A program made the translations under genes and the position numbers. DNA of 64,000 nt, taken from Candidatus Krumholzibacteriia bacterium (GTDB lineage: Bacteria; Krumholzibacteriota; Krumholzibacteriia; LZORAL124-64-63). The notes below the pieces were generated by a model, which was not told the origin of the DNA, did no database searches, and saw only the letters and a list, made by a program, of their open reading frames with translations. The DNA is taken from the NCBI GenBank assembly GCA_050174015.1, contig JBFXKG010000005.1, positions 81,994-145,993 of the forward strand, written 5' to 3'. Of the stretch, positions 6,591 to 44,860 are shown one piece after another. Each line of letters starts with the position of its first letter. The first letter of the stretch is position 1.

Positions 6591-6591
6591 T

Positions 6592-7644: not shown

Positions 7645-7715
7645 CTTCCGGAATCGTGCAGGTCGACAGGGGGGTCCGACTTCGGTCGGACCCCTTCCCT
7701 AGCCGGGAACGGTGA

Positions 7716-8198
7716 TCAGGGAGTGATGATGGTCAGGGTGGCGGTTCCGAAGTCCGTCTCCCCCACGTAGTCCACCCGCTTGCCGGGATTGCGGACCCAG
7801 CCCACGAAGTCGTCGGGTCCGGGCACCTGGTAGGGGAAGGTGGCGGTGGGGGCGACGTGAGGGTTCAGTTCGATGTTGTTGAAGAGGGTCCTCATGTTGT
7901 TGATGACCTCGGTGACGGCCTCGATCACCGGCTCGGACGCCTTGCCCGCCTTCTTCTGGTCCATCGCCGTCGCCTTGGGCAGCATGATGAGGTTGCCGCC
8001 GATGTAAAGAGTGGCCGCCAGGTCGGTCAGGACCGCCCCCTCGACCTTGTTGTCCCGCCCCTGCAGGAAGGTGATGTAGGCGCCCTTCTCGGGATTCAGC
8101 AGATCCCAGCCCTGGCCTTCCTTGAGAACCGGCTTTTCCCCGATGAGCAGTTCGACCAGGTCGAGGACTTCCTTGGGGGACGGCAACGTCAGCGTCAT
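7716..8198 (-). CDS. CheC/CheX-like protein (single domain)
   Basis: 160 aa; motif E-x2-N followed 22 residues later by P (EVINNMRTLFNNIELNPHVAPTATFP) matches the CheC-family active-site spacing; last gene of the minus-strand cheY-cheX module. Confidence 0.45.
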   Translation of the reverse strand: MTLTLPSPKEVLDLVELLIGEKPVLKEGQGWDLLNPEKGAYITFLQGRDNKVEGAVLTDLAATLYIGGNLIMLPKATAMDQKKAGKASEPVIEAVTEVINNMRTLFNNIELNPHVAPTATFPYQVPGPDDFVGWVRNPGKRVDYVGETDFGTATLTIITP

Positions 8199-27297: not shown

Positions 27298-27547
27298 GGT
27301 CAGCCTTTCCCAGCCGGGCCGGACAGGAAGGCGGCGGCCCTTTCGGCCAGCAGCTCCATGTAGCGGGCATGGTCCATGCCCGTCCCGGCACGCGGGAGGA
27401 TGTCGATCGGCAGGTTCAAGGGGCCTACCTCCTTTCTGGGGGGGATTATTCCCGATGCATGGGTGGATCACAAGCGGTGGTTGAAAGGGTCCCCGCTTGT
27501 CCGTACATTCCAACCCGTCCCGTCCACCCCCGGCTCCGGAAGGATCC

Positions 27548-29803
27548 ATGAACCGTCCCCAAAATTTCGCACCGTCCTTTCGCGTGGACGGCCGGCTCGT
27601 CCAGCCGGATCTGAACCGCATCTGCGGTCCGGAGGGGGAGGTCCAGGTGGAACCGCGGGTCATGCAGGTGCTGCTGGCCCTGTCCCGCACCCCCGGTCGG
27701 GTGGTGTCCCGCAACGACATCCTGGACGAGGTCTGGGGCGACCAGATCGTGGGCGAGGAGAACCTGACCCGGGCCATCTCGGAACTGCGCCGGATCTTCG
27801 GCGACCAGGCGCGCGAACCCCGGTACATCGAGACCATCCGCCATCACGGCTACCGGCTGATCGCCCCGGTGACGGAGCCGGAGAACGAGGCCGCAGGGGA
27901 TCCAGCCGAAGCGCCGGGTGACGAGGCCGTGAACACCCCGGACGCCACCGCCCCGGATGTCCCGGCCATTCCCTCCTCCCCGGTCGGGGGGGAGCCCCCG
28001 CGCCCCCGGAGCAGACGCCCGGGGAGGATTCCCCTCGGCGCGGTGATCATCGTGGCGATCACCGCCGTGGCCGTGAACTGGTGGCTGGATGGCCGGAGGG
28101 GGGACGCCGGCGATCCCGTCCCCGCACCTTCACCCGAGGATGTCCGGCCCCTGACCTCCTACACGGGGCGGGAGCGCCACCCGGCCCTGTCCCCGGACGG
28201 GCTCAGGGTGGCCTTCGCCTGGTCGGGCCCCGAGACGGAGGGTCCGTCGACCAGCCTGTTCATCAAGCAGCAGAACTCGGAGACCCCGCTCCAGCTGACC
28301 GATGCCGAGGGGTGGGTCGCCTGGCCGGCCTGGTCTCCCGACGGGCAGACCATCGCCTACGTCCAGGGGGGAGGGGGCCGCAGGGCCGTCCTGTGCACCA
28401 TCCCCTCCCTGGGCGGACCGGTGCGGGAGTTGGCGGCTTCGGCCGGCCTGATCGAGGGGTTGGACTGGAGTCCCGACGGGGACAGCCTGGTGTACTCCGC
28501 CCTGGACACCCTGGAGGGGATTCCCGTCCTGATGATCCTGGACCTGCCGTCCCTGACCACGACCGTGCTCGATCCCGAACGATTCGGCCCCGGACGGGCC
28601 ACCTTGCCGCGGATGTCTCCCGACGGGTCGAAGCTGGCCTGGGTCGCCTCCGACCCCGGCGGCGGGGGGGTCCTGATGGGGTCGTCCTGGCCGGATCCCG
28701 AGGGGCCGGCCAGGCGGCTGGCGGAGGGCCTGGGCGTCCTGGGCGGGCTGGCCTGGAGTCCCGACGGCCGGTCCATCGTCTTCGGCGCGGCCCCTGCGGG
28801 GGAATTCTCCCTGTGGACCGTGTCCTGGGAACGCGGAGAACCCCTGCCCCTGACGATCGGGGAGGGGATGGCCTGGAATCCCCACCTGAGCCGCCGCTCG
28901 GGGGATCTGGTCTTCGAGCAGCTGGCCATGGACCGCGACCTGTGGTGCGTCAAGGTGCTCGAATCGTCACCCTGGCGCCTGGAAAGCCGGCCTTTCGCAC
29001 CATCGACCCGCTGGGAGTTCGAGGCCGACTTCAGCCCCGACGGCGGCCGGGTGGCCTTCGTCTCGGCCCGGTCGGGCGCTCCGGAGATCTGGCTGGCCGA
29101 TTCCACGGGCGCCGACCTGACCAGACTGACCGACCTCGCCGCCGAGGCGATCACCCATCCCCGCTGGTCTCCCGACGGGACCCGCATCGGCTGCAACATC
29201 CTGCGCGGCGGCCGCTTGCTGGCGGCCGTCTGCGACGCCCGCGGAGGCGCTCCGCGCGAACTCACCACGGCCGGCGCCAACCTCCGGTTTTCGGCCTGGA
29301 CGCCCGACGGCCTCGGCGTCCTGCTCGCCGGGCCCACGGACCGCGGATGGCGCCTGCTGCGGACGTCCCTCGAAGAGGCGCCAGGAGAGACGGGCCCGGT
29401 CGACTTCCTGCCGCCCGGACTCGCCGCGGTCCAGGGGGAGTTCTCCCCCGACGGGCGCCACCTCTACTTCATCCGGCCAGGGGTCCGGGGCCTGTGGCGG
29501 GTCACCCTCGGGCCAGGGGGCGATCCCGAGGGGGACCCGCAGCTGGTCGTTGCGGAGATCGATGCGGCCCGCAGGGACAGCTGGCGGATCAGCGGCGGCC
29601 AGGTGGTCTGGGTCATGAGGGCTTCGGGCCTGGCCTACCTGGCCCTGACGGACACCGGAACGCTGGCGTCCACCCTGGTGACGGATTTGCCGGGATGGGC
29701 CGGCGAGGGCATCGCCGCGGCCCCCACCGGGAGGGCCTTCCTGTATCCCCATACCCGGAAAGTGGAGGCCGATCTGATGTGGATTCCGGGTTTCGCCCGT
29801 TGA
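27548..29803 (+). CDS. CadC/OmpR-type winged-helix DNA-binding regulator fused via a TM segment to a periplasmic TolB-like beta-propeller (PD40 repeats)
   Basis: wHTH region EVQVEPRVMQVLLALSRTPGRVVSRNDILDEVWGD...RRIFGD...IETIRHHGYRL; TM GAVIIVAITAVAVNWWL; repeats SPDGLRVAF, SPDGQTIAY, SPDGSKLAW, SPDGRSIVF, SPDGGRVAF, SPDGTRIG. Confidence 0.7.
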   Translation: MNRPQNFAPSFRVDGRLVQPDLNRICGPEGEVQVEPRVMQVLLALSRTPGRVVSRNDILDEVWGDQIVGEENLTRAISELRRIFGDQAREPRYIETIRHHGYRLIAPVTEPENEAAGDPAEAPGDEAVNTPDATAPDVPAIPSSPVGGEPPRPRSRRPGRIPLGAVIIVAITAVAVNWWLDGRRGDAGDPVPAPSPEDVRPLTSYTGRERHPALSPDGLRVAFAWSGPETEGPSTSLFIKQQNSETPLQLTDAEGWVAWPAWSPDGQTIAYVQGGGGRRAVLCTIPSLGGPVRELAASAGLIEGLDWSPDGDSLVYSALDTLEGIPVLMILDLPSLTTTVLDPERFGPGRATLPRMSPDGSKLAWVASDPGGGGVLMGSSWPDPEGPARRLAEGLGVLGGLAWSPDGRSIVFGAAPAGEFSLWTVSWERGEPLPLTIGEGMAWNPHLSRRSGDLVFEQLAMDRDLWCVKVLESSPWRLESRPFAPSTRWEFEADFSPDGGRVAFVSARSGAPEIWLADSTGADLTRLTDLAAEAITHPRWSPDGTRIGCNILRGGRLLAAVCDARGGAPRELTTAGANLRFSAWTPDGLGVLLAGPTDRGWRLLRTSLEEAPGETGPVDFLPPGLAAVQGEFSPDGRHLYFIRPGVRGLWRVTLGPGGDPEGDPQLVVAEIDAARRDSWRISGGQVVWVMRASGLAYLALTDTGTLASTLVTDLPGWAGEGIAAAPTGRAFLYPHTRKVEADLMWIPGFAR

Positions 29804-31252: not shown

Positions 31253-32065
31253 TCAGCTCCTGTATTCCTGTCCCTTCAGGACCTGGGTCGCGCCCCCCTC
31301 GAGGAAGTGGTAGTCGGAGTACCCGTATTCCTCAAGGTAGTACTGGAGCCACTTGATCTGCTTGCCGACCTGGTCGAAGATCAGGAGCGTCTTGTCCTGG
31401 TTCTCCTTCCGGGCCACGAAGTTGGGGATGAAGACGTCCAGGGGGATTCCCCGGGCCCCGGTGATCCCCGGCAGGTCGCCGGATTTCTGGATGTGGTCGC
31501 GGACGTCGATCACCATCGCGTTCGGTTCGGCGGCCTTGGTCTGGAACGCGGCGAAATCCAGGCACTTGCCCTGGAAGTAGGACTTCTTCAGGAGCTGCTT
31601 GTCGGGGTCGGTGATGGCCTTGCCCAGCAACAGGGTACTCTGCGGCCAGACGGAGGCCCATTCGGGGATGCCGGCATCGAAGGCGTAGACGTTGTCGAAT
31701 CCCGCGGCCATGGCTTCCTGCGCCGCCTTGTAGGATTTCAGGCAGGTGGTGCCGTTGCAGTAGAACGCGACGTTGCGGCCCGGGTTGGCGGCGACCAGAT
31801 CGGCGATCTCGCCGGCGAAGGTCTTCTGCGAGACGGCGATGTGATGGGCGCCGTCGATGTGGATGACGTCGTACTCCAGCTTGGAGCGAACGTCGACGAC
31901 CACGAATTCGCCGCTTTCCAGGCCCAGGAACAGGTCGTAGGTTTCAATGGTCTTGACATCGGGATAATCCCCGCGGTAGGGATATTTCTCGTCGGCCGAC
32001 GCCGTCACGGCGAGGCCGGCGATCAGGGCGACGGCGAGCATGGCGTGGATCTTCGAGCGGATCAT
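31253..32065 (-). CDS. Periplasmic tandem rhodanese-domain sulfurtransferase
   Basis: Signal peptide; two rhodanese-like segments, first with active-site Cys loop FYCNGTTC. Confidence 0.7.
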   Translation of the reverse strand: MIRSKIHAMLAVALIAGLAVTASADEKYPYRGDYPDVKTIETYDLFLGLESGEFVVVDVRSKLEYDVIHIDGAHHIAVSQKTFAGEIADLVAANPGRNVAFYCNGTTCLKSYKAAQEAMAAGFDNVYAFDAGIPEWASVWPQSTLLLGKAITDPDKQLLKKSYFQGKCLDFAAFQTKAAEPNAMVIDVRDHIQKSGDLPGITGARGIPLDVFIPNFVARKENQDKTLLIFDQVGKQIKWLQYYLEEYGYSDYHFLEGGATQVLKGQEYRS

Positions 32066-32164
32066 GGGGCTCCTCCTCCGGATGGTGCCTGGGTTCGTTC
32101 CTGGTTTGTGGTATTCGGATGGAATCCCATCGACAGTGTGGGGATTTTCTTGAGGAGGAATCCC

Positions 32165-32668
32165 ATGGATGTGGTGCGCAGGGGGAAAACGGGCGGGACC
32201 ATGCTGCTCATGGCCCTGGTCCTGGTGGCGATCGGCGCCCTGGCCCTGGGGGCCGGGGAGAAGATGAGCGTCCAGGTCAAGACCGGCCAGCTCCGGGCCA
32301 AGGCCTCGTTCCTGGGGGCGCTGACGGGCGAGGTCGGGTACGGGACGCGGGTGGACGTGGTGGCCCGGCAGGGGGCCTGGGTCAAGGTGTCCGGGGCGGG
32401 CAAGGAGGGCTGGATCCACGAATCCGCCCTGACCCCCAAGGTCGTGGTCATGAAGGCGGGGGACGCGCCGGTCGGGACGGGCGCCGGCGGCGACGAGGTC
32501 GCCCTCGCCGGCAAGGGATTCAACTCCCAGGTCGAGGAGGAATACCGCAAGGAGAACAGGGAGGTCGACTTCGCCTGGGTCGACCGCATGGAGAAGTTCG
32601 TGATCACCCCCCGGCAGGCAGCCGACTTCCTCGCCGAAGGCTCCGTCGGAACCGAAGGGGGGAACTGA
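32165..32668 (+). CDS. Secreted SH3b-like domain protein
   Basis: Signal/TM MLLMALVLVAIGALALGA; SH3b-like segment GYGTRVDVVARQGAWVKVSGAGKEGWIHESAL; start 32165 or 32201. Confidence 0.45.
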   Translation: MDVVRRGKTGGTMLLMALVLVAIGALALGAGEKMSVQVKTGQLRAKASFLGALTGEVGYGTRVDVVARQGAWVKVSGAGKEGWIHESALTPKVVVMKAGDAPVGTGAGGDEVALAGKGFNSQVEEEYRKENREVDFAWVDRMEKFVITPRQAADFLAEGSVGTEGGN

Positions 32669-32669
32669 C

Positions 32670-33596
32670 ATGAAGACCTTCGGCACGACGATCCGGACCG
32701 TACTGGTGATCCTGGCCCTGGCCGCCCTGGCGGCCGGCTGCGCCTCGGTGGCCAAGATGGCCACCCAGGTGGGCCAGGGGACCGGGGCCATCACCGAGGA
32801 CCAGGCCCAGTCCCTGAACCGCAGCATCGACGCGGTGGAGAAGACCTTCACCGACATCACGCCCGAGCAGGAGTACTACCTGGGCCGCGCCGTGGCGGCC
32901 AACCTGCTGACCGACCAGCGGGCCCTGGACGATGCGGCGGCCAACGCCTACCTGAACCGCCTGGGCCAGACCCTGGCCATGGCCTCGGACCGCCCGGAGA
33001 CCTTCGGCGGATACCACTTCCTGCTGCTGGATTCGGACGAGATCAACGCCTTCGCCGCGCCCGGCGGCCTGATCCTGGTCACCCGGGGCATGGTGCGGCT
33101 TTGCGGGACCGAGGACGAACTGGCGGCGGTCCTCGCGCACGAGATCGGGCACATCCAGGGCAAGCACGGCCTGCGGGCCATCAAGAACAGCCGGCTGACC
33201 GGCGCCCTGACGGTCCTGGCGGCCGAGGGCGCGCGCCAGTTCGGCGGGCAGGACCTCAAGAATCTGGTCGAGGCCTACGAGGGCAGCATCAGCGACATCA
33301 CCGGGACCCTGGTGACAAGCGGTTACTCCCGCGGCCTGGAACAGGAAGCCGACCGGGCGGCGGTGGCCATCCTGGAGCGGGTGGGCTACGACCCGCACGC
33401 GCTGGTCACGATGCTGACCCGCATGAAGGAGCGGCTCGAGCCCGGCGGGCTGGATTTCGCCAAGACCCATCCCGACCCGGGCGACCGGATCGCCGACATC
33501 AAGCCCCTGATGACCAGGGCGCCGGCGGCGGCCGAACCGGCTGCGCGCCACCGGAGGTTCATCGGGGCGGTGGGCGGACTGCTCGCCGGGTCATGA
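32670..33596 (+). CDS. M48-family Zn metallopeptidase lipoprotein (BepA/YcaL-like)
   Basis: Lipobox LAAGCAS; HEIGHIQGKHG zinc motif and downstream E (LEQEADRAAV). Confidence 0.8.
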   Translation: MKTFGTTIRTVLVILALAALAAGCASVAKMATQVGQGTGAITEDQAQSLNRSIDAVEKTFTDITPEQEYYLGRAVAANLLTDQRALDDAAANAYLNRLGQTLAMASDRPETFGGYHFLLLDSDEINAFAAPGGLILVTRGMVRLCGTEDELAAVLAHEIGHIQGKHGLRAIKNSRLTGALTVLAAEGARQFGGQDLKNLVEAYEGSISDITGTLVTSGYSRGLEQEADRAAVAILERVGYDPHALVTMLTRMKERLEPGGLDFAKTHPDPGDRIADIKPLMTRAPAAAEPAARHRRFIGAVGGLLAGS

Positions 33597-35698
33597 CCTC
33601 CCTGCGGAGCAAGGCGGGCCAGGGGGCGCTCCTGGGTCTGGGAGCGACGGCCCTGGCCTGCCTGCTGTGGTGGTCCGGGGCGCTGGAGCGGGCCGAGAAC
33701 GTGACCTGGGACTGGCGGGTCCGCCTCACCGCGGGGGCCGATTCGCGGACGGCCGCGTTCGCAGCGGATTCCCTGGCGGTCATCCTGCTCGACCAGGCCA
33801 GCCTGGACTGGGGCCAGGAGACCAGCGGCTGGTCCTGGCCGTGGCCGCGCGAGGTCTACGGGGCCGTCATCGGGTTCTGCAAGCAGGCGGGCGCCGCCAC
33901 CCTGGCCTTCGACGTCCTGTTCACCGAGCCGTCGGTCTACGGCATGGCCGACGACGAGGCCCTGGCCGAGGCCATGGCCGACTTCGGTCCCTTCGTCGGG
34001 GCCCTGTTCGTTCACGAGGCATCGGCGGGGAACGCCCCCGACCGGGCCGGAGGCGACGGGCCTGCGCCGTCGCCCATCACCCTGCCCATCCCCGAGGTGG
34101 CGGCCGCCGCCGCCGTGCTGGGCAACGTGGCGGACGTTCCGGACGCCGACGGCATCTTCCGCCGCGCCTCGCTCGTTCGCCTCTCGCCGGATCCCGATCT
34201 TCTCAATCGCCGCATCCCCTCGCTGGGTTACGCCCAGTTCGAACTCGCGCGGCCTGGCGCTTCAGCCGGTCTCACGTCCGTGGTGATCGACGGCGATCCG
34301 GTGCTCGGCTCCAGGGCGCCCCGGCCTGTCCTGAGGTACGTGGCCCCCGATCGGGCCTGGCCCCAGTACGGCGCCGCGGCGGTGATCCGGTCCTACCTGC
34401 AGATGATGGAGGGTTCCGAGCCTACCCTCGACCCTGCGTCGCTGCGGGGGAGGCACGTGCTGTTCGGGTTCAGCGCTCCGGGCCTGCTCGACCTGCGGCC
34501 CACGCCCCTGAGTCGCGTGGCCCCGGGGGTGACCGTCCACGCCACGGTGCTGGCCGACCTGATGACCGACGGATTCATCGCCGGCACCCCGCCGGCCGCG
34601 GCGGTCCTCGTCCACGCGTTGCTGGCTGTGCTTACGGCCGGTCTGCTGCTGGGGGCCCGCAGGTCGTGGCAGACCGGCCTGGTGCTGCTGGGCGGGGTGG
34701 CGATCCTGCTGGTCTGGGCCTGGGCGCAGGCGTCGGCCGGTCGGTGGTGGCCGGTGGTTCCGGGGCTCGGCGGACAGGTCCTGGCCATGGCCGGGGCCCT
34801 GGTGCTGGCCTGGTCCACGGAGGGCCGCAAGAAGCGCTTCATCAGCCAGGCGTTCGGGCACTACCTCAGCCCCGCGGTGATCGCGGCGATCATGGAGGAT
34901 CCCGACAGGCTTCAACTCGGCGGAGAGAGGCGCGAGCTGACCATCTTCTTCTCCGACCTGGCCGGATTCACCGGCATCAGCGAGAAGCTCGACCCGAAGG
35001 ATCTGGTGGTCCTGCTGAACGAGTACCTGTCCGACATGACGGACATCATCCTGCAGGAGCAGGGCACGCTGGACAAATACGAGGGGGATGCGATCATCGC
35101 CTTCTGGAACGCGCCGCTGGACCAGCCGGACCATGCCGCGCGGGCGTGCCGCACGGCGGTGCTTTGCCAGCGCCGGCTGGCCGATCGCCGCGCCGGGTTC
35201 AAGGAGCGCTTCGGCGTCGATCTGCACATGCGCATCGGCCTGCACACCGGTCCGGTGACCGTGGGCAACATGGGTTCCCAGGACCGCTTCGATTACACGG
35301 TGCTCGGGGACGCCGCCAACCTGGCCTCGCGGCTGGAAGGCGCCAACAAGGTGTTCGGGACCGCCGTGATGGCGTCGCAGACGACGGTCGAGGCGGCCGC
35401 CGGGGCGGTCATCGCGCGCGAACTCGGCGACCTGCAGGTCGTCGGCCGCCAGACCGCGGTGACGGTCGCGGAGATCACCGGCCTCGCCGGCGATCCGGCC
35501 CCGGGTCACTGGCCCGAGTACGCCCGGGCCCTGGAACTGTGCCGCGGGGGCCGTCCCCAGGACGCCTTGCCGGTGTTCGCGGGGCTTGGCTCCGGGCCGG
35601 CTGCGGATCCTGCAGCGGCCGCCTGGGCCGAGCGCCTGCAGTCCGAAGCGGCCGAGCCGGAAGCCTTCGCTGCGGTCTGGAGCCTCAAGGGGAAGTAG
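33593..35698 (+). CDS. CHASE2 sensor-domain adenylate/guanylate cyclase (class III)
   Basis: ATGA overlap with the M48 stop; periplasmic CHASE2-like region between TM segments; cyclase core FFSDLAGFTGISEKL...GDAIIAFWNAP...RIGLHTGPVTVGNMGS...YTVLGDAANLASRLE. Confidence 0.8.
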   Translation: MTSLRSKAGQGALLGLGATALACLLWWSGALERAENVTWDWRVRLTAGADSRTAAFAADSLAVILLDQASLDWGQETSGWSWPWPREVYGAVIGFCKQAGAATLAFDVLFTEPSVYGMADDEALAEAMADFGPFVGALFVHEASAGNAPDRAGGDGPAPSPITLPIPEVAAAAAVLGNVADVPDADGIFRRASLVRLSPDPDLLNRRIPSLGYAQFELARPGASAGLTSVVIDGDPVLGSRAPRPVLRYVAPDRAWPQYGAAAVIRSYLQMMEGSEPTLDPASLRGRHVLFGFSAPGLLDLRPTPLSRVAPGVTVHATVLADLMTDGFIAGTPPAAAVLVHALLAVLTAGLLLGARRSWQTGLVLLGGVAILLVWAWAQASAGRWWPVVPGLGGQVLAMAGALVLAWSTEGRKKRFISQAFGHYLSPAVIAAIMEDPDRLQLGGERRELTIFFSDLAGFTGISEKLDPKDLVVLLNEYLSDMTDIILQEQGTLDKYEGDAIIAFWNAPLDQPDHAARACRTAVLCQRRLADRRAGFKERFGVDLHMRIGLHTGPVTVGNMGSQDRFDYTVLGDAANLASRLEGANKVFGTAVMASQTTVEAAAGAVIARELGDLQVVGRQTAVTVAEITGLAGDPAPGHWPEYARALELCRGGRPQDALPVFAGLGSGPAADPAAAAWAERLQSEAAEPEAFAAVWSLKGK

Positions 35699-35703
35699 GT
35701 CCG

Positions 35704-36543
35704 ATGAAGCTGTTCCTCGCAGGCGTGCGCGGGTCGCGCCCGGTCACCGGGTCGCAGGTGGCGCGCTACGGCGGAGACACCACCAGCGTCCTGGTCACCG
35801 GCCGGGCGGGCGAAACCGTGGTCATCGACGCCGGATCGGGACTGGCGGCCATCGAGCCGCGCCTGGGGGGACCCGCCCAGGACGTCCTTCTGCTCTTGAC
35901 GCACCTGCATCTCGACCACCTGCAGGGACTGCCGGGATTCGGGCCGTTCTGGCAGGCCGGGCGCAGGATCGTCGTCCTCGGTCCGCTCGGCAGCCGGGAT
36001 GCGGCATGCGGTCTCGTCGGCCCGCCCTACTGGCCCCTGAGTCTCGTGGACGCCCCGGCGGACGTCGCCTTCACCGAGGGCGACCCCGCGGCGGTCGTCT
36101 GGGGCGGCCTGCGGATCAGCAGCTTCCCGGTGGCGCATCCGGGGGGGAGCCTGGCCTATCGCATCGACGAACCGGCTACGAACCGGTCTCTGGTGTTCGC
36201 CACCGACGTCGAGTGGGAGTCGATGGACGCGTCCGCCCGGAGGGATTTCGCGGCCTTCTGCCGGACCCCGGCGCCGGTGGATCTGCTGCTGATGGACGGG
36301 CACCTGACCCCCGCCAACGCCCCCGACCGCAGGGGCTGGGGACACAGTTCGTACGAGGAGGTGGCGGCCGCCGGCGAGGCGGCCGGGGCGGGCCGGGTAC
36401 TCGTCATCCACCACGATCCGGATCATGACGACGGGCAGCTCGACCGCCTGGCGGCCGACCTGGAGGCCCACGTGGCGCAGAGGGGGTACGCCTTCACGGC
36501 CGCCCTCGCAAGGCAAGGGGACGAGGAGGATCTCGGCGGATGA
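35704..36543 (+). CDS. MBL-fold metallo-hydrolase (candidate cyclic-nucleotide phosphodiesterase)
   Basis: HxHxDH motif LTHLHLDHLQG plus downstream His/Asp ligands; 5 nt after the cyclase gene. Confidence 0.6.
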   Translation: MKLFLAGVRGSRPVTGSQVARYGGDTTSVLVTGRAGETVVIDAGSGLAAIEPRLGGPAQDVLLLLTHLHLDHLQGLPGFGPFWQAGRRIVVLGPLGSRDAACGLVGPPYWPLSLVDAPADVAFTEGDPAAVVWGGLRISSFPVAHPGGSLAYRIDEPATNRSLVFATDVEWESMDASARRDFAAFCRTPAPVDLLLMDGHLTPANAPDRRGWGHSSYEEVAAAGEAAGAGRVLVIHHDPDHDDGQLDRLAADLEAHVAQRGYAFTAALARQGDEEDLGG

Positions 36544-38144
36544 ACCAGTATGCACCGTTGATCATCGAGCTGGGAATCATGGCGGCCGTGTGGCTGCTCG
36601 GGGCGGGGTTCGCCTCGGTGTTCCACCGGAAGTCGCGGACCGAACACGGGAGCCGGGGCCGCCCCCGCAACCTGGGGACGCTGCTGGCCTACCTGGCCCT
36701 GCCGGTCTTCGTGCTGGTCCTGTCCTTCGGGGCCGAACGGGCCGCCGGGCTGTTCCCGCAGGCTGCGGCCTGGCTCGACGGCCACGGCAACCACGTCTCG
36801 GCCTGGCTTCTGTTCTGGCTGGGAGTGGGGCTGATCCTGCTGGTCGAGGGAATCCTCCATCTGGTCTACGCCTCCCGCGGGCGGAACTTCCCGGTCCCGG
36901 ACCTGCTGCTGGACATCCTGAGGCTGCTGCTGATCCTGGCGGTGGCTTTCGGTGTCCTGAGGTTCGAACTCGGACTGAACATCGGGCCCCTCCTGGCGTC
37001 CACCGCCCTGATCACGGCCGTGGTCGGCTTCGCCTTGCAGGGCGTGCTGGGGAACCTGCTGGCGGGCATGTCCCTGCACATCTCGCGGTCCATGGTGCCG
37101 GGAGACTGGATCGATCTGGGCGGGACCACGGGCAAGGTCGTCGAGACCAACTGGCGCGAGACCCGGGTGCGGACCAACGACGGCCACATGATCATCGTGC
37201 CCAACAGCAAGGTGGCCGACGCGGTCATCCACAACATGGTGCGGCCCAATTCCACCCGCCGCCATCAGGTCAACGTCGGTGCCAGCTACGCCGATGCTCC
37301 CGACGCCGTGATCGCCGCCCTGGTCGAGGCGGCGCTCGAGGTGCCCGAGGTCCTGCGCAACCCCGCCCCGGACGCCTTCGTCACCGCCTACCAGGATTAC
37401 GGCATCAACTACGTGCTGCGGTTCTGGTCGAAGGAGTACCACCGCCGGCTGGTCATCGAGGGTCACGTCAACCGGATGATCTGGTACAAGTTCAAGCGGC
37501 GGGGCATCGAGATCCCCTTCCCCATGTCCGACAAGCTGCTGTACGACTTCATGGAGGTGGTTCAGACCCAGGGACGCAAGCCCGCGCCTGCCGCCGAGCT
37601 GAGCCGCATCACCGAACTGCTGGCCGGCAGCGACCTCGTCCGCACCCTGGCGACCGATCTCCAGGGCGCGCCGCTGCTGACGCGGGAGCATCTGGCGGAA
37701 CTCGCCCCTCACGTGCGCCGCGTCCTGTACACCCGGGGGGAGACCCTGTGCCGCCAGGGGGATCAGGGCGATTCCTGTTTCCTGGTGGTGAGCGGGCAGC
37801 TTTCCGGGCGGGTCCGCAACGAACAGGGACAGGAGATCGCCGCCTTCGATCTGGGGCCGGGGGCCCTGGTGGGCGAGATGAGCCTGATGCTGGGGGTTCC
37901 CCGTTCGGCGGAGATCACCCTGCCCGAGGGGGCCGAGTTGATCGAGATCGGCCCGGAGGCGTTCAAGGTGCTCCTGGGCCTGCATCCGGAGGTCCCCGAA
38001 TCCCTGGCGAGACTGGCCGAGGACCGGGCCAAGGCCAACCGGGCGGCCCTGGAGGCCTGGGCCGGCGCCCGGAACGGAAACGAGGGGATCGAGTTGAACG
38101 CCAAGGGATTCCTGCATCGGTTCCTGAAGATCCTGGGCCGCTGA
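36540..38144 (+). CDS. MscS-family mechanosensitive channel with C-terminal cyclic-nucleotide-binding (cNMP) domain
   Basis: ATGA overlap with the upstream stop; MscS TM3/beta-domain (GVLGNLLAGMSLHISRSMVPGDWIDLGGTTGKVVETNWRETRVRTNDGHMIIVPNS); C-terminal cNMP fold (GETLCRQGDQGDSCFLVVSGQLSG...GEMSLMLGVPRSAEITL). Confidence 0.8.
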   Translation: MNQYAPLIIELGIMAAVWLLGAGFASVFHRKSRTEHGSRGRPRNLGTLLAYLALPVFVLVLSFGAERAAGLFPQAAAWLDGHGNHVSAWLLFWLGVGLILLVEGILHLVYASRGRNFPVPDLLLDILRLLLILAVAFGVLRFELGLNIGPLLASTALITAVVGFALQGVLGNLLAGMSLHISRSMVPGDWIDLGGTTGKVVETNWRETRVRTNDGHMIIVPNSKVADAVIHNMVRPNSTRRHQVNVGASYADAPDAVIAALVEAALEVPEVLRNPAPDAFVTAYQDYGINYVLRFWSKEYHRRLVIEGHVNRMIWYKFKRRGIEIPFPMSDKLLYDFMEVVQTQGRKPAPAAELSRITELLAGSDLVRTLATDLQGAPLLTREHLAELAPHVRRVLYTRGETLCRQGDQGDSCFLVVSGQLSGRVRNEQGQEIAAFDLGPGALVGEMSLMLGVPRSAEITLPEGAELIEIGPEAFKVLLGLHPEVPESLARLAEDRAKANRAALEAWAGARNGNEGIELNAKGFLHRFLKILGR

Positions 38145-38311: not shown

Positions 38312-38905
38312 ATGAAGCGCACCACGACCACCCTGATCGCCATGCTGGCCATCCTCGCCCTGTCCGCCACCCTGGCCATGGCGGGGGACGACTGCGGAGC
38401 CAAGAAGGCCGCCGCCAAGGGCGCCTGCGCGGACAAGGCCGCCGCCTGCGCCGACAAGGCCGGCGCGACCGCTCTGGAAGCCTCAGCCAAGGGCGCCTGC
38501 GCGGACAAGGCCGCCGCCTGTGCGGACAAGGCCGGAGCGACCGCCATGGAAGCCTCCGCCAAGGGCGCCTGCGCGGACAAGGCTGCCGCCTGCGCCACCA
38601 AGGCCGGCTCGTGCCCTGATCAGGCCGCCTGCGACGCCGTCAAGGCCGCCATGCACAAGTGTTGCGCCGAGGCCATGGCCGCGGGCAACGGCTGCTGCGG
38701 CAAGGACGCCGCCGGCCTGAAGGCCGACTTCACTCAGAAGGTCGCCTCCCACAAGGCCGCCATGGCCGTGAAGGCCGACATGCACAAGTGCTGCGCCGAG
38801 GCCCTCGACGCGGGCAAGGGCTGCTGCGGCAAGGACGCCGCCGGTCTGAAGGCCGACTTCGACAAGAAGGTCGCCGGGGTCGAGAAGAAGGTCGCCTCGA
38901 TGTAA
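38312..38905 (+). CDS. Secreted Ala/Cys-rich tandem-repeat protein (candidate metal-binding periplasmic protein)
   Basis: Signal peptide; 3 x 24-aa repeat AKGACADKAAACADKAGATA(L/M)EAS (72-nt DNA period from 38415); 2 x about 43-aa repeat MHKCCAEA..G.GCCGKDAAGLKADF; 14 Cys in 197 aa. Confidence 0.6.
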   Translation: MKRTTTTLIAMLAILALSATLAMAGDDCGAKKAAAKGACADKAAACADKAGATALEASAKGACADKAAACADKAGATAMEASAKGACADKAAACATKAGSCPDQAACDAVKAAMHKCCAEAMAAGNGCCGKDAAGLKADFTQKVASHKAAMAVKADMHKCCAEALDAGKGCCGKDAAGLKADFDKKVAGVEKKVASM

Positions 38906-39080
38906 TCCCCCGGTGCCAGCCTGACCACACACCGGGACGGACCCCGGCTCCCTGCGAGCCGGGGTCTTTTCCATGTCACCGGGTATCCATGCCTGCGTAT
39001 TATCCCCTGTCGCCACCGGGCCGGGCATCCGTGCCGGTCCGGAGCGGGCAAGCGATCGGCGCCGATTTTCTTGCGAGGAC

Positions 39081-39713
39081 GTGTCATTGAACCTGAGAAC
39101 CGCGTGGCGTGACCGCAGGCACGGGATCCTGCTCCGGCTGGCCCGGCGCGGTCACGAGGACTCCTTCACCAGGCTTTACCAGGAGCTGTACGCCCCGGTG
39201 ACGGCTTTCGTCGCAAGCCGGGTCAGGAATCGCGAGGACGCCGAGGACGTCGTGTCCCAGGTCTTCCAGCGCTTCCTGGCGGGCATGGACGGGTTCGATG
39301 GCCGGCGCGGGAGCGTGCTCGGCTGGACCCTGGCCATGGCCCGACACGCAGTCATCGACCGCGCCCGGCGCCAGGCCGCCCACGGGGGCGCCCGGCGGTG
39401 GGTGGGGGACGTGGACGGCATGGCGGAGGTGCTGCCGTCCCCGGTCCCGGATGCCCTTGCGGCCCTGGTGGCGGACGAGGATCTGGCCAGGCTGGCCCGG
39501 CTGCTGGACATGCAGCCGGCGGAGATCCGGGAGATGTTCGAGCTGCGCTTCGGCCAGGGCCTGGCCCTGAAGGACGTGGCCGGGGTGCTGGACCTGAGCG
39601 AGGACGCCGTCAAGCAGCGTTTCGCCCGGGCCACGCGGAAGCTGCGGGAACAATGGCGAGGCGACGTGAATCCGGCGGGCAAGGGAGGCAAGACATGCAC
39701 GGCGACGGACTAG
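39081..39713 (+). CDS. ECF-type sigma factor
   Basis: Region 2 (FTRLYQELYAPVTAFVASRV...DVVSQVFQRF) and region 4 (LDMQPAEIREMFELRFGQGLALKDVAGVLDLSEDAVKQRFARATRKL); GTG/TTG start around 39081-39088. Confidence 0.65.
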   Translation: MSLNLRTAWRDRRHGILLRLARRGHEDSFTRLYQELYAPVTAFVASRVRNREDAEDVVSQVFQRFLAGMDGFDGRRGSVLGWTLAMARHAVIDRARRQAAHGGARRWVGDVDGMAEVLPSPVPDALAALVADEDLARLARLLDMQPAEIREMFELRFGQGLALKDVAGVLDLSEDAVKQRFARATRKLREQWRGDVNPAGKGGKTCTATD

Positions 39714-40423: not shown

Positions 40424-40531
40424 TCCGGCTCCATTCCGGGATGAAGGAACGGCTCCTCGCGAAACGGGGGGCTGTTTTTTCTGCCGTTGCGAGTTATCCT
40501 CCGGAAATGGGCCGATTCAGGAGAGGAATCG

Positions 40532-41296
40532 ATGACCTGCAGCAATGGCCTCGTACTCGACCGCCCCCGCGGCCGCACCATCGTGGTCGGCGACATCCAC
40601 GGCTGCTGGGACGAGTTCGCTACGCTCCTGGATGGCCTGGGCTTCGACGCCGGCGACCTCGTGCTGTGCGTGGGCGACCTCATCGACCGCGGCCCCGACA
40701 CCTGGCGGGTGGCCCGCTTCTTCCGCAAGACCCCCAACGCCCACACCGCCCTGGGCAACCATGAGCGGTTGCTGGCCTGCCACATCCTGGAAAACGGTCC
40801 GGCCGCCTGGTCGCAGCAGCACGCCCTGGCGCAGCTGCCCCGAGAACAGTGGGAAGACTGGGCCCGCTGGCTCCTCGACCGTCCCGCGGTGATCGCCACG
40901 CCCGACGTGGTGGTGACGCACGCCAGGCTGGATCCGGTCGTTCCCCTTGCAGACCAGGATCCCATCCACACCTGCGCCATTGGTGACCCCAACGAATGGA
41001 TCGAGCAGGATCCCGCCGGCGTCCCCCTGTGGATCAGGTCGTGGCAGGACCCGCGTCCGGTTTGCATGGGCCACCTCGTCTACCCGCAAGTCGAACTCGT
41101 ACCCCGCCGGCTGTACGCCCTGGACACCGGTTGCTGCCGCGGGGGAGCGCTGACCGCCCTGGTCCTGCCGGACTTCGGGATCGTCGCCGAACCTGCCCGC
41201 GCCAACCACGCCCTCCTGTCCCGCAAGGCCTGGGAGGCTCAGGCGCCCGGCGAACCGGGAACCGGACAGGACGGATCCCCGGCTGGAACCCCCTAG
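40532..41296 (+). CDS. ApaH-like metallophosphoesterase (Ser/Thr phosphatase / diadenosine tetraphosphatase family)
   Basis: GDIHGC ... GDLIDRG ... GNHE calcineurin-like motifs. Confidence 0.7.
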   Translation: MTCSNGLVLDRPRGRTIVVGDIHGCWDEFATLLDGLGFDAGDLVLCVGDLIDRGPDTWRVARFFRKTPNAHTALGNHERLLACHILENGPAAWSQQHALAQLPREQWEDWARWLLDRPAVIATPDVVVTHARLDPVVPLADQDPIHTCAIGDPNEWIEQDPAGVPLWIRSWQDPRPVCMGHLVYPQVELVPRRLYALDTGCCRGGALTALVLPDFGIVAEPARANHALLSRKAWEAQAPGEPGTGQDGSPAGTP

Positions 41297-41386
41297 CCCG
41301 ATGCCTCGAGGACACGAAGGTTGCGGAACTTAAGGCCATCCTGGATGATATGACCAGTGCACAATGACCACCGAAGGGATCACCAC

Positions 41387-42787
41387 ATGCAACTGACCTT
41401 CCACGGCGCCGCCGGCACCGTCACCGGCTCGCGGCACCTGCTCGAGGCCGCCGGCCAGCGCGTCCTCATCGATTGCGGCCTGTTCCAGGGGCTCAAGCAG
41501 CTGCGGCGGATGAACTGGGATACCCCGGGTTTCGAACCCGGGTTCCTCGATCGCGTCGTCCTGACCCACGCCCACATCGACCACACGGGTTACACCCCCC
41601 GCTTGCTGCAGTACGGGTTCAAAGGGCCGGTCCACTGCACCGAGCCTACCGCCGAACTGCTGGAACTGATGCTCATGGATTCGGCGCACCTGCAGGAGGA
41701 GGACGCGGCCTGGGCGAACAAGAAGGGGTTCTCCAAGCACGATCCCGCCGAACCGCTCTACACGTCGGTGGACGCCCTCAGGACGCTCAAGCTGATCCGG
41801 CCCGAACCGTTCCAGCGCTGGATCGCGTGTTCGGAGGGGATGCGCATGCGCTACCACAATTCCGGACACATCCTCGGCGCGGGTTTCGTGGAGTTCCGCA
41901 TCAAGGCCGACCGGCCCGACACGGTGAATCCGGGCGAGCTGACGGTGATCTTCAGCGGGGACGTCGGCCGCTACGACGTGCCCCTCCACCTCGACCCCGA
42001 GCCCCTGCCCGCCTGCGACGTCCTGATCATCGAATCGACCTACGGCAACCGCACCCACGACCACGAGCCCGTGCTGGAGCAGATCGGCGAGGAGTTCAGG
42101 CGCACGGTGCACAAGCGGGGGGTCATCCTCATCCCGGCGTTCGCGGTCGGACGCACCCAACTGGTGGGCCTGATCCTCCGCGGCCTGATGACCCAGGGCG
42201 ACCTGGCCGAGGTCCCCATCCACATCGACAGTCCCATGGCCATCGACGCGACCCTGATCTACTCGCGCCACCTCTACGACGACAACCTGGACGAGGGCGT
42301 CACGGCCGACGACCGCAGCCGCCTGTTCCCCCGCAACGTGAAGCTGCATCGCACCGTCCACGAGTCCAAGCAGCTCAACACCCTGAAGGGGCCACGGGTG
42401 ATCATCGCGGCCAGCGGGATGATGACCGGGGGGCGCATCCTCCACCATCTCATCCGGCGCCTGCCCGACCATCACAACCTGATCCTGCTGTCGGGCTACC
42501 AGGCGCAGGGTACGCGGGGCCGGTCGCTGCAGGACGGCGCCGACCATCTGCGCATGCACGGCCAGAACGTGCCGGTCCACGCCAAGGTGGCGACCATCGA
42601 TGGACTCAGCAGCCACGCCGACATGAACGAGCTGATGCGCTGGGTCTCCACGGCTCCGCAGCCGCCGAAGCGGGTGTTCGTCGTCCATGGGGAAGAGGAG
42701 CAGTCGAGCCACCTGGCGGGGCTCATTCGTACGGCGACGGGGGCGGAGGTGACCGTTCCGGGTCTGAAGGATTCCTTCGCCTTGTGA
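41387..42787 (+). CDS. MBL-fold beta-CASP ribonuclease (RNase J/CPSF-like)
   Basis: LTHAHIDHTG motif II, beta-CASP region, C-terminal RNA-metabolising MBL motifs (HADMNELMRW, HGEEE). Confidence 0.7.
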   Translation: MQLTFHGAAGTVTGSRHLLEAAGQRVLIDCGLFQGLKQLRRMNWDTPGFEPGFLDRVVLTHAHIDHTGYTPRLLQYGFKGPVHCTEPTAELLELMLMDSAHLQEEDAAWANKKGFSKHDPAEPLYTSVDALRTLKLIRPEPFQRWIACSEGMRMRYHNSGHILGAGFVEFRIKADRPDTVNPGELTVIFSGDVGRYDVPLHLDPEPLPACDVLIIESTYGNRTHDHEPVLEQIGEEFRRTVHKRGVILIPAFAVGRTQLVGLILRGLMTQGDLAEVPIHIDSPMAIDATLIYSRHLYDDNLDEGVTADDRSRLFPRNVKLHRTVHESKQLNTLKGPRVIIAASGMMTGGRILHHLIRRLPDHHNLILLSGYQAQGTRGRSLQDGADHLRMHGQNVPVHAKVATIDGLSSHADMNELMRWVSTAPQPPKRVFVVHGEEEQSSHLAGLIRTATGAEVTVPGLKDSFAL

Positions 42788-43164: not shown

Positions 43165-44631
43165 TCAATCCTGGTTCACGTCGGAGTAGGCGTTCTTCAG
43201 CTCATACCGCGAAACCCCGCGTTTCTTGTCCGGATCGCCCTCGTAGCCCAGGGCCTTCCAGTCGATGCGCCCCTGGCCTTCCTTGGGATGGCAGTCGACG
43301 CACTTCAGGGCGTACTGGGCGGGAGCGACCATGTGGTTGATCTTCCAGTAGGCCGAGGTCTCGGCGAAGCCGTACTCGCCGCCGTACTCCAGGCCCACCG
43401 CCTCCATGCCCTGCTTCATGGCGCTGTCCCAGTCCCACCCGTTCTTCCAGTAGCCGGTCTTGCCGAAGAGCTTGGGCACGGCCAGGATCCGGGCCTGCTT
43501 GTCGTAGGGCTGCTTGCCGCGCATGACCTTGAACGGGTAGATCTTGGCCTTGGGGTCGAGGCGGTTGCCCTGGAGCCAGTTCAGGTGGGTCACGCCGTCG
43601 GGGTTCATCGCATCGCCCAGGGTGTACTGGCCGCTGACCCCGTTGTACCACGCGTAGGTGGGGACGACGTTCTTCTCCCATTTGAAGGAGCCCTTCTTGA
43701 TGTCGTAGACGGGCATCCCGAATTCGTCCACGGTCGCTTCGATGTTCTGGCCGGCGGTGGACCAGTCCCACCAGGTCTTGGTGGGATTGGCGCGGGCGAA
43801 CTGGGGGATGTGGCAGGTCTGGCAGGCCACGGTCTTGTTGTGCCAGTTCAGGATCCGCTTGGCGTGCAGATCCTCGTCGTGGCAGCTGGTGCACTCGAGG
43901 TGGTTGGTGCCCCCGGGCGAATCGAACATGGCGTTGCCCGCGATGTCGTGGTCGGTGGTGGTGTGGCACTCCTGGCAGGTGAAGTCCTGGCCTTCGGGGC
44001 TCATGTGGACGTCGATGGCCAGCGGGGGTTCGGCCAGGGCCTTTTCCAGGTCGCCGTGCTTGACGTTGTTGCCGCCGCCGCCGTAGAAGTGGCAGGCGCC
44101 GCAGTTCTCGCGGCTGGGCATTCCGGCGCTGCGGGCGATGCTGGCCAGGTCCAGGGGCTCCCAGATCTTGCCCTCCCACTCGGTGGGCTCGTAGACGGGA
44201 TGGCCCGCCCCGGTGGGGAACTTCCGGTAGGAGCCGGTCTGGTCATGGCAGACCAGGCAGTCGATGTTCCCGGGGTTGTCGAAGTCGAAGGTTGCGTCCT
44301 TCCAGCCGTAGCCCGCATGGCAGCTGGTGCACCGCGGCCAGTTGGAATCCAGGGCGATGCAGAAATTGTTCAGGGCGTTCTTCTTGCCGAGGGGGACCTG
44401 GCCCTTGCCCACGACGTCCTGGAGGGGCATCCAGGTCCAGTGGGACGTCTTCATGAAGTCGTGGGCGGCGTCGTCATGGCATTCCAGGCAGACCGCGGTC
44501 ACGGCGGGGCCGTTTTCGAAGGGACCTTCGATGTCCTGGTGATCGGGGACCACGTTCAGGGCGAGGGCCTGACCGCAGGCGGCGGCCAGGACCAAGGCCA
44601 GGATGGTCTGGAATTGGGAAACTCGGCGCAT
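43165..44631 (-). CDS. Octaheme c-type cytochrome (octaheme tetrathionate-reductase-like family)
   Basis: Signal peptide MRRVSQFQTILALVLAAACGQALA; eight CxxCH motifs (CLECH, CTSCH, CLVCH, CGACH, CQECH, CTSCH, CQTCH, CVDCH); ggagg RBS; 488 aa. Confidence 0.8.
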   Translation of the reverse strand: MRRVSQFQTILALVLAAACGQALALNVVPDHQDIEGPFENGPAVTAVCLECHDDAAHDFMKTSHWTWMPLQDVVGKGQVPLGKKNALNNFCIALDSNWPRCTSCHAGYGWKDATFDFDNPGNIDCLVCHDQTGSYRKFPTGAGHPVYEPTEWEGKIWEPLDLASIARSAGMPSRENCGACHFYGGGGNNVKHGDLEKALAEPPLAIDVHMSPEGQDFTCQECHTTTDHDIAGNAMFDSPGGTNHLECTSCHDEDLHAKRILNWHNKTVACQTCHIPQFARANPTKTWWDWSTAGQNIEATVDEFGMPVYDIKKGSFKWEKNVVPTYAWYNGVSGQYTLGDAMNPDGVTHLNWLQGNRLDPKAKIYPFKVMRGKQPYDKQARILAVPKLFGKTGYWKNGWDWDSAMKQGMEAVGLEYGGEYGFAETSAYWKINHMVAPAQYALKCVDCHPKEGQGRIDWKALGYEGDPDKKRGVSRYELKNAYSDVNQD

Positions 44632-44860
44632 GGACGTTGCCTCCGTGTGGAGCCCCCGATCCGTCACGTTCCCCCTGTCAGGGACCGGGTCGGAGCGCTG
44701 TGAAATCATTAACCCTGCCTCAAAATTCACCCAGCCCGGGGGTATAATCAAGAAATTTCATGACAAATTGATGACATAAAGGAGATTGGAACCGTCCGAT
44801 ATTCGTTCTGGGAAGTAAATCAAGAGAGCATTCTGCCGACAAAGAGGGCAGGAGGTCGCC

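Follow-up and report, generated by a model that had tools for sequence, protein, structure and literature searches.

In this study, we analyzed a 64,000-nucleotide stretch of DNA (hereafter the window) from a Candidatus Krumholzibacteriia bacterium (contig JBFXKG010000005.1, positions 81,994 to 145,993), and focused on five consecutive plus-strand genes in its middle. In order, they encode a small SH3b protein, an M48-family metalloprotease lipoprotein, a class III nucleotidyl cyclase with a CHASE2 sensor domain, a soluble hydrolase of the metallo-beta-lactamase (MBL) fold, and an MscS-family channel that ends in a cyclic nucleoside monophosphate (cNMP)-binding domain (Table 1). Taken jointly, we considered it reasonably probable that this region of 5.98 kb (32165-38144) is one five-gene operon and that its products make up a whole pathway leading from a receptor via a second messenger to a channel.

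Table 1. Features of the five-gene cassette and of the region in front of it (positions in the window; aa, amino acids; TM, transmembrane).
Feature	Position	Strand	Evidence
Divergent intergenic region, probable promoter region	32066..32164	+	Between rhodanese minus-strand start (32065) and SH3 ATG (32165)
Small SH3b protein, secreted or anchored to the membrane, 167 aa	32165..32668	+	Pfam SH3_3 5.4e-09, hydropathy, AlphaFold2 model
M48 zinc metalloprotease lipoprotein, 308 aa	32670..33596	+	Pfam Peptidase_M48 (PF01435) 1.1e-32
CHASE2 receptor adenylate cyclase (predicted), 701 aa	33593..35698	+	Pfam CHASE2 and Guanylate_cyc, hydropathy
CHASE2 extracytoplasmic sensor domain, residues 19-346	33647..34630	+	Pfam PF05226 2e-41, hydrophobic flanks
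Class III nucleotidyl cyclase catalytic domain, residues 448-623	34934..35461	+	Pfam PF00211 1.5e-19, PDB alignments, motifs
Cytoplasmic MBL-fold binuclear metallohydrolase, 279 aa, probable cAMP phosphodiesterase	35704..36543	+	Lactamase_B_2 (PF12706) 2.8e-14
MscS channel with C-terminal cNMP-binding domain, bCNG-type architecture	36540..38144	+	Pfam, PDB matches, hydropathy
MscS pore helix (TM3 equivalent), beta and alpha-beta domains, residues 148-325	36981..37514	+	PF00924, PF21082
cNMP-binding domain, residues 396-479	37725..37976	+	PF00027 3.5e-16

The junctions between the five genes were read directly in the sequence. The SH3b and M48 genes were separated by 1 nucleotide (nt); the M48 and cyclase genes overlapped by 4 nt (ATG 33593-33595 overlapping TGA 33594-33596); the cyclase and MBL genes were 5 nt apart (TAG 35696-35698, then ATG 35704), which was the longest intergenic gap inside the cassette; and the MBL and channel genes again overlapped by 4 nt (ATG 36540-36542 overlapping TGA 36541-36543). 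An earlier, sequence-only reading of this region had recognized the CHASE2 cyclase, the MBL hydrolase and the MscS-cNMP channel as three adjoining genes, which was confirmed by Pfam matches and coordinates, and had placed an M48 lipoprotein protease upstream with ATGA coupling at 33593, which the sequence bore out. Its statement that the three genes were coupled to each other by ATGA overlaps held for the overlap at 36540, whereas that at 33593 joins the M48 gene to the cyclase gene, and the cyclase and MBL genes are divided by the 5-nt gap. Similarly, the genes that it named do belong to the module, but there are five of them rather than three, the SH3b gene (32165-32668) having been missed, and the invariant core turned out to consist of the SH3b, M48 and cyclase genes.

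The start of the SH3b gene was placed at ATG 32165 based on a ribosome-binding site, GAGGAGGA, at 32152-32159. A rhodanese gene (31253-32065, minus strand) is divergent from it, and no sigma-70-like consensus was found in the region between the two genes (32066-32164). A spacer of about 170 nt that is richer in A+T lies 3' of the channel end (38144) and holds the region's only good sigma-70-like match; G+C content across the window was 65-72%. No further cyclase or cNMP-domain genes were present within the 64-kb window.

Conservation of the cassette was examined in two sets of loci. First, one genome per species was scanned with an alignment of the MBL protein, which yielded 80 loci, and each window protein was searched against them by tblastn. 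A full-length CHASE2 cyclase on the same strand was located directly upstream of the MBL gene in 26 of the 80 loci, and the channel was found downstream in 19 of the 22 loci whose sequence extended far enough on that side (it was absent at L005, L010 and L019). The SH3b and M48 genes were present upstream in 19-21 loci, that is, in nearly all of those whose contig reached far enough. These cassettes were distributed among Krumholzibacteriia, Verrucomicrobiota, Kiritimatiellae, Planctomycetota (Pirellulales, Phycisphaerales and Sedimentisphaerales), Fibrobacteraceae, Aminicenantes and bins labelled 'PVC group' and 'Eubacteriales'. Thus, the cyclase-MBL-channel order, whose conservation in relatives had been proposed as a check, is kept across phyla. 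Clustering of open reading frames (ORFs), leaving aside clusters that overlapped the five genes out of frame or in antisense, revealed no sixth conserved gene, the next-best cluster being present in 4 of 27 loci.

Second, metagenomes were scanned with an alignment of the SH3 protein, an anchor that is independent of both the MBL protein and the channel. The M48 gene followed the SH3 gene in all 55 metagenome loci with at least 1 kb of downstream sequence, and the CHASE2 cyclase followed in 38 of 39. The MBL gene was present in 13 of 31 loci (about 40% of cores) and the channel in 9 of 25 (about 35%). Eight of these nine channel loci also possessed the MBL gene, and the ninth match was a 30%-identical MscS protein encoded upstream of the SH3 gene, so that in this set every channel gene located 3' of the cyclase belonged to a cassette with MBL. 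Therefore, the SH3b, M48 and CHASE2 cyclase genes form an invariant sensory core, to which MBL is a frequent add-on and the channel a nested accessory.

Independent gene calls and Pfam annotation agreed with this picture: a Latescibacteria metagenome-assembled genome (MAG) contained all five genes (with precomputed Pfam matches), a Lentisphaerae contig contained four, the channel being missing, and a Desulfobacterales MAG contained the SH3b-M48-cyclase trio alone, with intergenic distances of at most 42 nt in the three examples. In addition, when loci were compared in pairs, the identities of the five proteins were correlated with each other (r = 0.89-0.96; channel versus cyclase, r = 0.96), which implies that the five genes diverged together as a unit. 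With the same order in dozens of loci and in other phyla, the gene arrangement is far beyond chance, and a three-gene reading understates the size and modularity of the system and, by a wide margin, its distribution.

Several individual loci showed variations of the layout. A Fibrobacteraceae MAG had an insertion of about 2.7 kb between the M48 and cyclase genes (L004, 1960-4727), and two other loci (L007 and L013) had insertions of 0.65-0.9 kb between the cyclase and MBL genes. One cyclase-MBL locus (L018) had no detectable SH3 or M48 gene in the 4.9 kb upstream, and in one SH3-M48 locus (L152) no cyclase was detected within 8 kb downstream.

Hydropathy analysis of the cyclase indicated a first TM helix (residues 13-31), a periplasmic CHASE2 domain, three further TM helices (335-406) and a cytoplasmic catalytic domain. 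The closest solved relative was the catalytic domain of Synechocystis Cya2 (2w01, 2.7e-31; 6fht, 3.9e-38), an enzyme that itself has a native CHASE2 domain, and CyaB of P. aeruginosa was also among the best. D455, K495, D499, T569, N576 and R580 were invariant in all 27 cyclase orthologues, and the class III roles are all represented, namely the two metal-binding Asp, the transition-state Asn and Arg, and the adenine-specifying Lys and Thr. T569 is presumably the Thr in question, as assigned by manual alignment to mammalian and CyaC cyclases. The Lys/Thr pair is of the type found in CyaC-type and soluble adenylate cyclases. K495, which lies in D-K-Y-E-G-D, aligned with Glu488 of the guanylate cyclase Cya2, whose E488K variant has adenylate cyclase activity. 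Based on these residues, the cyclase is predicted to make cyclic AMP (cAMP). Beyond the catalytic domain, residues ~631-701 (35483-35695) form an extension of about 70 amino acids with no Pfam match; most full-length orthologue alignments reached the last residue of the cyclase, this C-terminal extension included. The native C-terminus of Cya2 has been noted as a distinct element (PMC5995499).

The SH3b protein has a single N-terminal hydrophobic segment by hydropathy. In its AlphaFold2 model, the barrel was predicted with high confidence (predicted local distance difference test, pLDDT, >90) and was followed by a linker (residues 93-118, pLDDT <50) and a C-terminal three-helix bundle. The motif E-x-ALAGKGFN (residues 111-120) was invariant in a 42-sequence alignment; because it is invariant and yet lies in the disordered linker, it suggests a linear site for partner binding or cleavage. 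The family comprised at least 454 cluster representatives, with lengths of 127-189 amino acids among the 120 matches listed. The M48 protein has a lipobox (LAAGC), an H157-E158-x-x-H161 active site (HEIGH) and a downstream Glu (E-x-x-A-D), all of which were kept in every orthologue aligned. These are also the features of M48 metalloprotease lipoproteins of the LoiP/YcaL/BepA type. The protein was BepA-/LoiP-like by NCBIfam but scored below both equivalog cut-offs, and thus it is a member of the family rather than an orthologue of BepA or LoiP.

The MBL protein is the weakest link of the proposed pathway. Its predicted metal ligands (H67, H69, D71, H72, H145, D168, H214 and H236) were invariant in 42 homologues, and its metal motif THLHLDH (H67-L-H-L-D-H72) fits both the HxHLDH and the [T/S]HxHxDH signatures. 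Other invariant family motifs were G-x-R-G(-S) near the N-terminus, Y-G-G-x-T-T, P-x-W-P, D-x-E-W and G-W-G-H-S, and no hydrophobic segment was found by hydropathy. The AlphaFold2 model had a pLDDT of 97, and Foldseek ranked RNase Z (1y44) at the top, followed by BA1088 (1zkp) and B. subtilis YhfI (6kns/6knt), with TM-scores of 0.70-0.82 to YhfI; the fold matches to RNase Z and to YhfI were equivalent. Lower matches included ELAC1, ZiPD, yeast PDE1, PhnP and the Apyc1 anti-Pycsar phosphodiesterases. A profile search gave a similar list (RNase Z 2cbn, 2.3e-15; BA1088 1zkp, 3.8e-12; YhfI 6kns, 3.8e-10), and the RNase Z model TIGR02651 matched all 42 family members, with a best E-value of 8.6e-21 versus 1.3e-13 for the cyclic-nucleotide phosphodiesterase (PDE) model NF041851. 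The window protein was below the curated cut-offs of both models.

The sequence-only reading had assigned this protein to the fold used by class II cAMP PDEs. The MBL fold and the HxHxDH motif stand, but the protein does not belong to the classical class II family, PF02112, to which it had no match at E <= 0.01; the homologue P0005 reached only 13 bits against PF02112, under the cut-off. Yeast PDE1 (4ojv) was distant, scoring 1.3e-4 in the profile search and ranking 19th in Foldseek. On the other hand, atypical class II PDEs (Rv1339, CpdA and YhfI) have been defined by PF12706 and [T/S]HxHxDH and are related to RNase Z (Thomson et al., PMC9293780), and Rv1339 of M. tuberculosis hydrolyses cAMP (PMC9293780). 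By fold and motif, the MBL protein falls in this RNase Z/YhfI-like branch, and it carries the features by which the atypical enzymes are defined. It differs from them in forming a separate subfamily with its own G-x-R-G-S...Y-G-G-x-T-T and GWGHS motifs, in being genetically locked to a specific cyclase, and in being no closer in sequence to YhfI than to RNase Z, whereas the PF12706 fold, the [T/S]HxHxDH motif and a small soluble protein are common to it and to Rv1339, C. glutamicum CpdA and YhfI (PMC9293780).

A tree of MBL proteins was read as an unrooted split, midpoint rooting being uninformative. All 39 cyclase-linked MBL proteins fell on one side together with 8 unlinked sequences, and the opposite side comprised 47 sequences, mostly from Actinomycetota. 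A small conserved ORF lay directly upstream of the MBL gene in 42 of 55 non-cassette loci and encoded a PAS-only protein where checked. This coupling of sister-side MBL proteins to a PAS-only protein makes the wider family look like a regulated signalling enzyme. The relatives concerned (L029-L081, Actinomycetota and Chloroflexi; 32-38% identity) were translationally coupled to an upstream PAS-only protein of about 140 amino acids, for example at L032, where a Pfam-confirmed PAS gene (6591-7004) is followed by the MBL gene (7001-7840) and then by a UPF0047 protein. This looks like an undescribed two-gene PAS-MBL signalling pair.

Mainly from its gene context, the MBL protein of the cassette probably has cAMP PDE activity. 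The alternative that it is instead an RNase Z/ELAC-like nuclease or another phosphodiester hydrolase (for example, of 2',3'-cNMP), with cAMP cleared by some other enzyme or by export, appeared unlikely, although it is the strongest of the rival explanations. It would agree with the fact that RNase Z models and structures (TIGR02651, 2cbn and 1y44) were the best sequence and fold matches, with the GHS[ST] motif common to the two families, and with the many SH3b-M48-cyclase cores that work without MBL. However, the protein scored far under the RNase Z equivalog cut-off (36.7 vs 293 bits); the segment corresponding to the tRNA-binding arm appears from alignment coordinates to be about 30 residues shorter (162-197 vs 155-221), and no protruding arm was seen among the secondary-structure elements of the compact 279-residue model. 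Moreover, one would not expect to meet a housekeeping tRNA enzyme beside a receptor cyclase at 39 loci that all group on one side of the tree, the partner of the sister clade is a PAS sensor protein, and the validated cAMP PDEs Rv1339 and CpdA, as well as YhfI, belong to the same RNase Z-like branch and share the same motif.

The channel matched MS_channel_2nd (PF00924, 1.3e-16) and MS_channel_3rd (PF21082, 2.2e-13) in addition to the cNMP-binding family, and hydropathy predicted five TM segments. Residues 79-331 matched E. coli MscS structures at about 1e-21 (2vv5, 1.3e-21), and residues 380-500 matched the cAMP-binding domains of the protein kinase A regulatory subunit, MloK1 and CRP. The sequence-only reading had described the cNMP domain as canonical and had named loss of its Arg/Glu contacts among the observations that would refute the proposed circuit; both the Gly-Glu and the Arg-Ser/Thr-Ala contacts were present, in a phosphate-binding cassette that reads G445-E446...R455-S456-A457. 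The corresponding GEMSL...PR[ST]A motif was found in complete channel orthologues, with the Ser/Thr replaced in two. MscS-like channels with a C-terminal cNMP domain are known as bCNG channels and are mostly cyanobacterial, according to a 2026 review (PMC13591265).

It seems improbable that this channel is an ordinary osmotic safety valve, with a vestigial or structural cNMP domain and an adjacency that reflects co-regulation only. A member of the bCNG group, Ss-bCNGa, gates by membrane tension, to judge from a title cited in PMC13591265, and the MscS core of the channel orthologues is well conserved, including the Q-G hinge, Asn and Gly of TM3, which would suit a plain valve. In contrast, orthologues from different phyla that were only 35-55% identical overall still kept the nucleotide contacts of the cNMP domain, which speaks for selection to bind a ligand, and both the restriction of downstream channels to MBL-containing cassettes and the close co-divergence of channel and cyclase point away from a plain valve.

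The interpretation that we prefer is that the cassette encodes a complete signalling pathway from receptor to second messenger to channel in one operon; we regard this as somewhat favored overall, on computational rather than biochemical evidence. As input, the SH3b protein and the M48 lipoprotein may act in the periplasm with the CHASE2 domain of the membrane adenylate cyclase. The cyclase, judging by its residues, would then make cAMP in the cytoplasm, and the soluble MBL hydrolase may remove it, thereby shaping or ending the signal. As output, cAMP would bind the cNMP domain of the MscS-like, putatively heptameric channel and might alter its gating. The net effect would be to convert an envelope or extracellular cue into a flux of ions or solutes across the inner membrane. 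The predicted topology fits such a pathway: the SH3 and M48 proteins carry export signals, CHASE2 lies between TM helices, and the catalytic domain, the MBL protein and the cNMP domain are cytoplasmic. The circuit of synthase, degrader and channel effector under an extracytoplasmic sensor that the sequence-only reading had outlined is thus supported by the cross-phylum gene order, the co-divergence, the adenylate-type residues and the retained nucleotide contacts of the cNMP domain, with the degrader being a putative PDE.

Several observations weigh against this pathway. First, about 58% of SH3b-M48-cyclase cores had no MBL gene and about 64% had no channel. Since most cores are without MBL or channel, the cyclase must act on further targets, with the channel as one optional output; an alternative conserved effector was looked for downstream of MBL-less cores and none was found. 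Second, by sequence the MBL family is equally close or closer to RNase Z than to the cyclic-nucleotide PDEs. Third, the linkage between MBL and cyclase is strong but not absolute, since no cyclase gene adjoins that of P0003, which at 51% identity is the nearest MBL relative from outside the lineage. Fourth, the role of the SH3b and M48 proteins with the cyclase is deduced solely from adjacency and topology. Finally, PMC13591265 states that the bCNG channels studied gave E. coli no protection against down-shock and that the effect of nucleotides on gating is unknown, and it describes these channels as having neither a solved structure nor a known physiological role.

A Pycsar-like system for abortive infection, in which a cyclic nucleotide made upon phage infection would cause a cNMP-domain membrane protein to kill or depolarise the cell, shares with the cassette the logic of a class III-type cyclase, a membrane effector with a cNMP domain and a cyclic-nucleotide PDE (putative in the cassette) of the MBL fold (the phage anti-Pycsar enzyme Apyc1 being among the structural matches of the MBL protein), and PADLOC models did match the cyclase (PycC, 6.2e-33) and the cNMP domain (PycTIR/effector models, 1e-10); nevertheless, it is very improbable here, because these matches were confined to generic cyclase and cNMP domains with none for the SH3, M48 or MBL proteins, the purine (adenine) Lys-Thr pair was present in 27 of 27 orthologues, the CHASE2 sensor of the cyclase and the partners of the enzyme are periplasmic, a PDE encoded in cis by the system would counteract its own signal, most cores are without any effector, and the neighbours are unrelated housekeeping genes rather than defence islands.

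Within the receptor-to-channel pathway, a more specific mechanism can be put forward tentatively, and we consider it doubtful rather than likely. The SH3b protein, the M48 protease and CHASE2 might constitute a periplasmic switch gated by proteolysis, in which the E-x-ALAGKGFN motif would be the site of M48 cleavage or of CHASE2 binding, its removal or release would activate the cyclase, and a cAMP pulse bounded by the MBL hydrolase would open the channel. The logic of such a cascade is analogous to that of eukaryotic sensory transduction. The CpxA-CpxP-DegP envelope-stress system also consists of a membrane sensor, a small periplasmic modulator and a periplasmic protease that could remove the modulator. 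It is offered tentatively as a functional analogy without homology, and the output here would be cAMP rather than phosphorylation. If true, this switch would explain for the first time how a CHASE2 domain is activated and would give bCNG channels their first physiological role.

The cyclase shares its order of TM helix, CHASE2, three TM helices, transducer element and class III catalytic domain with CyaD1, CyaD2 and CyaK of S. meliloti and with Synechocystis Cya2. The latter is a guanylate cyclase with a Glu/Gly pair, whereas the cyclase described here has the adenylate Lys/Thr pair. The CHASE2 cyclases of S. meliloti respond to a protein signal via the outer-membrane/envelope protein NsrA, and by analogy a protein or peptide input appears plausible for the cassette cyclase as well. 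However, the S. meliloti system uses an NsrA-type barrel partner and the CRP-type regulator Clr as output, whereas SH3b and M48 partners and a dedicated channel are found here. With regard to the channel, bCNG proteins have the same MscS pore helix, vestibule domains and C-terminal cNMP domain with an intact phosphate-binding cassette. The members described (Caldwell et al., 2010; Malcolm et al., 2012), according to PMC13591265, are mostly cyanobacterial and were studied in isolation, in contrast with the channel analyzed here, which has five predicted TM segments, lies in an operon with a presumptive source and sink of cAMP, and occurs in many mostly uncultured lineages (for example, Krumholzibacteria, Verrucomicrobiota, Planctomycetota and Aminicenantes).

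The flanks of the cassette contain several other genes. The gene at 38312-38905 (plus strand) encodes a secreted, Ala/Lys/Cys-rich protein of 197 amino acids with internal repeats (KGACADKAAACADKAGATA..EASA twice and MHKCCAEA..AG.GCCGKDAAGLKADF twice); it had no Pfam match and was 88% conserved in the locus of a sister MAG (L002). An extracytoplasmic function (ECF) sigma factor gene (38973-39713) follows directly 3', and the protein may have a metal- or redox-related role in the envelope and be controlled by the ECF factor. Farther downstream are a calcineurin-like metallophosphoesterase (40487-41296, plus strand; GDxHG...GDxxDRG...GNHE) and, adjoining it and 3 kb downstream of the cassette, a second MBL-fold gene (41357-42787, plus strand), which is of the beta-CASP/RMMBL RNA-metabolising type and unrelated to the cassette; neither of these two genes was a conserved neighbour of the cassette elsewhere. 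The minus-strand gene at 43165-44751 encodes a multihaem c-type cytochrome of about 527 amino acids (Cytochrome_cB, 8.8e-63; several CxxCH motifs). Upstream, the gene at 27497-29803 (plus strand) encodes a protein of 768 amino acids in which an OmpR/CadC-type winged helix (Trans_reg_C) is fused to a PD40/TolB-like beta-propeller, an architecture as in ToxR-like one-component membrane regulators.

A full-text literature search, with most subscription journals outside its scope, found no description of such an operon and no paper in which CHASE2 was paired with M48 (one unrelated match), with SH3 in the sense of the cassette, or with MscS/cNMP channels. Thus, the cassette architecture appears, provisionally, to be undescribed, whereas its parts all come from known families.

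CHASE2 is a widespread extracytoplasmic sensor domain whose mechanism of perception is only partly known in the literature examined, and its near-obligate partnership with the SH3b and M48 proteins (55 of 55 and 38 of 39 loci) provides specific candidate partners for it. The cassette also gives bCNG channels a natural source of ligand and a probable sink, and the pathway could be reconstituted from five genes. If the proposed function of the MBL protein is true, a context-defined subfamily would be added to the recently recognized MBL-type cAMP PDEs. If the pathway as a whole is true, it would represent a rare bacterial case in which cAMP acts directly on membrane conductance rather than on transcription.

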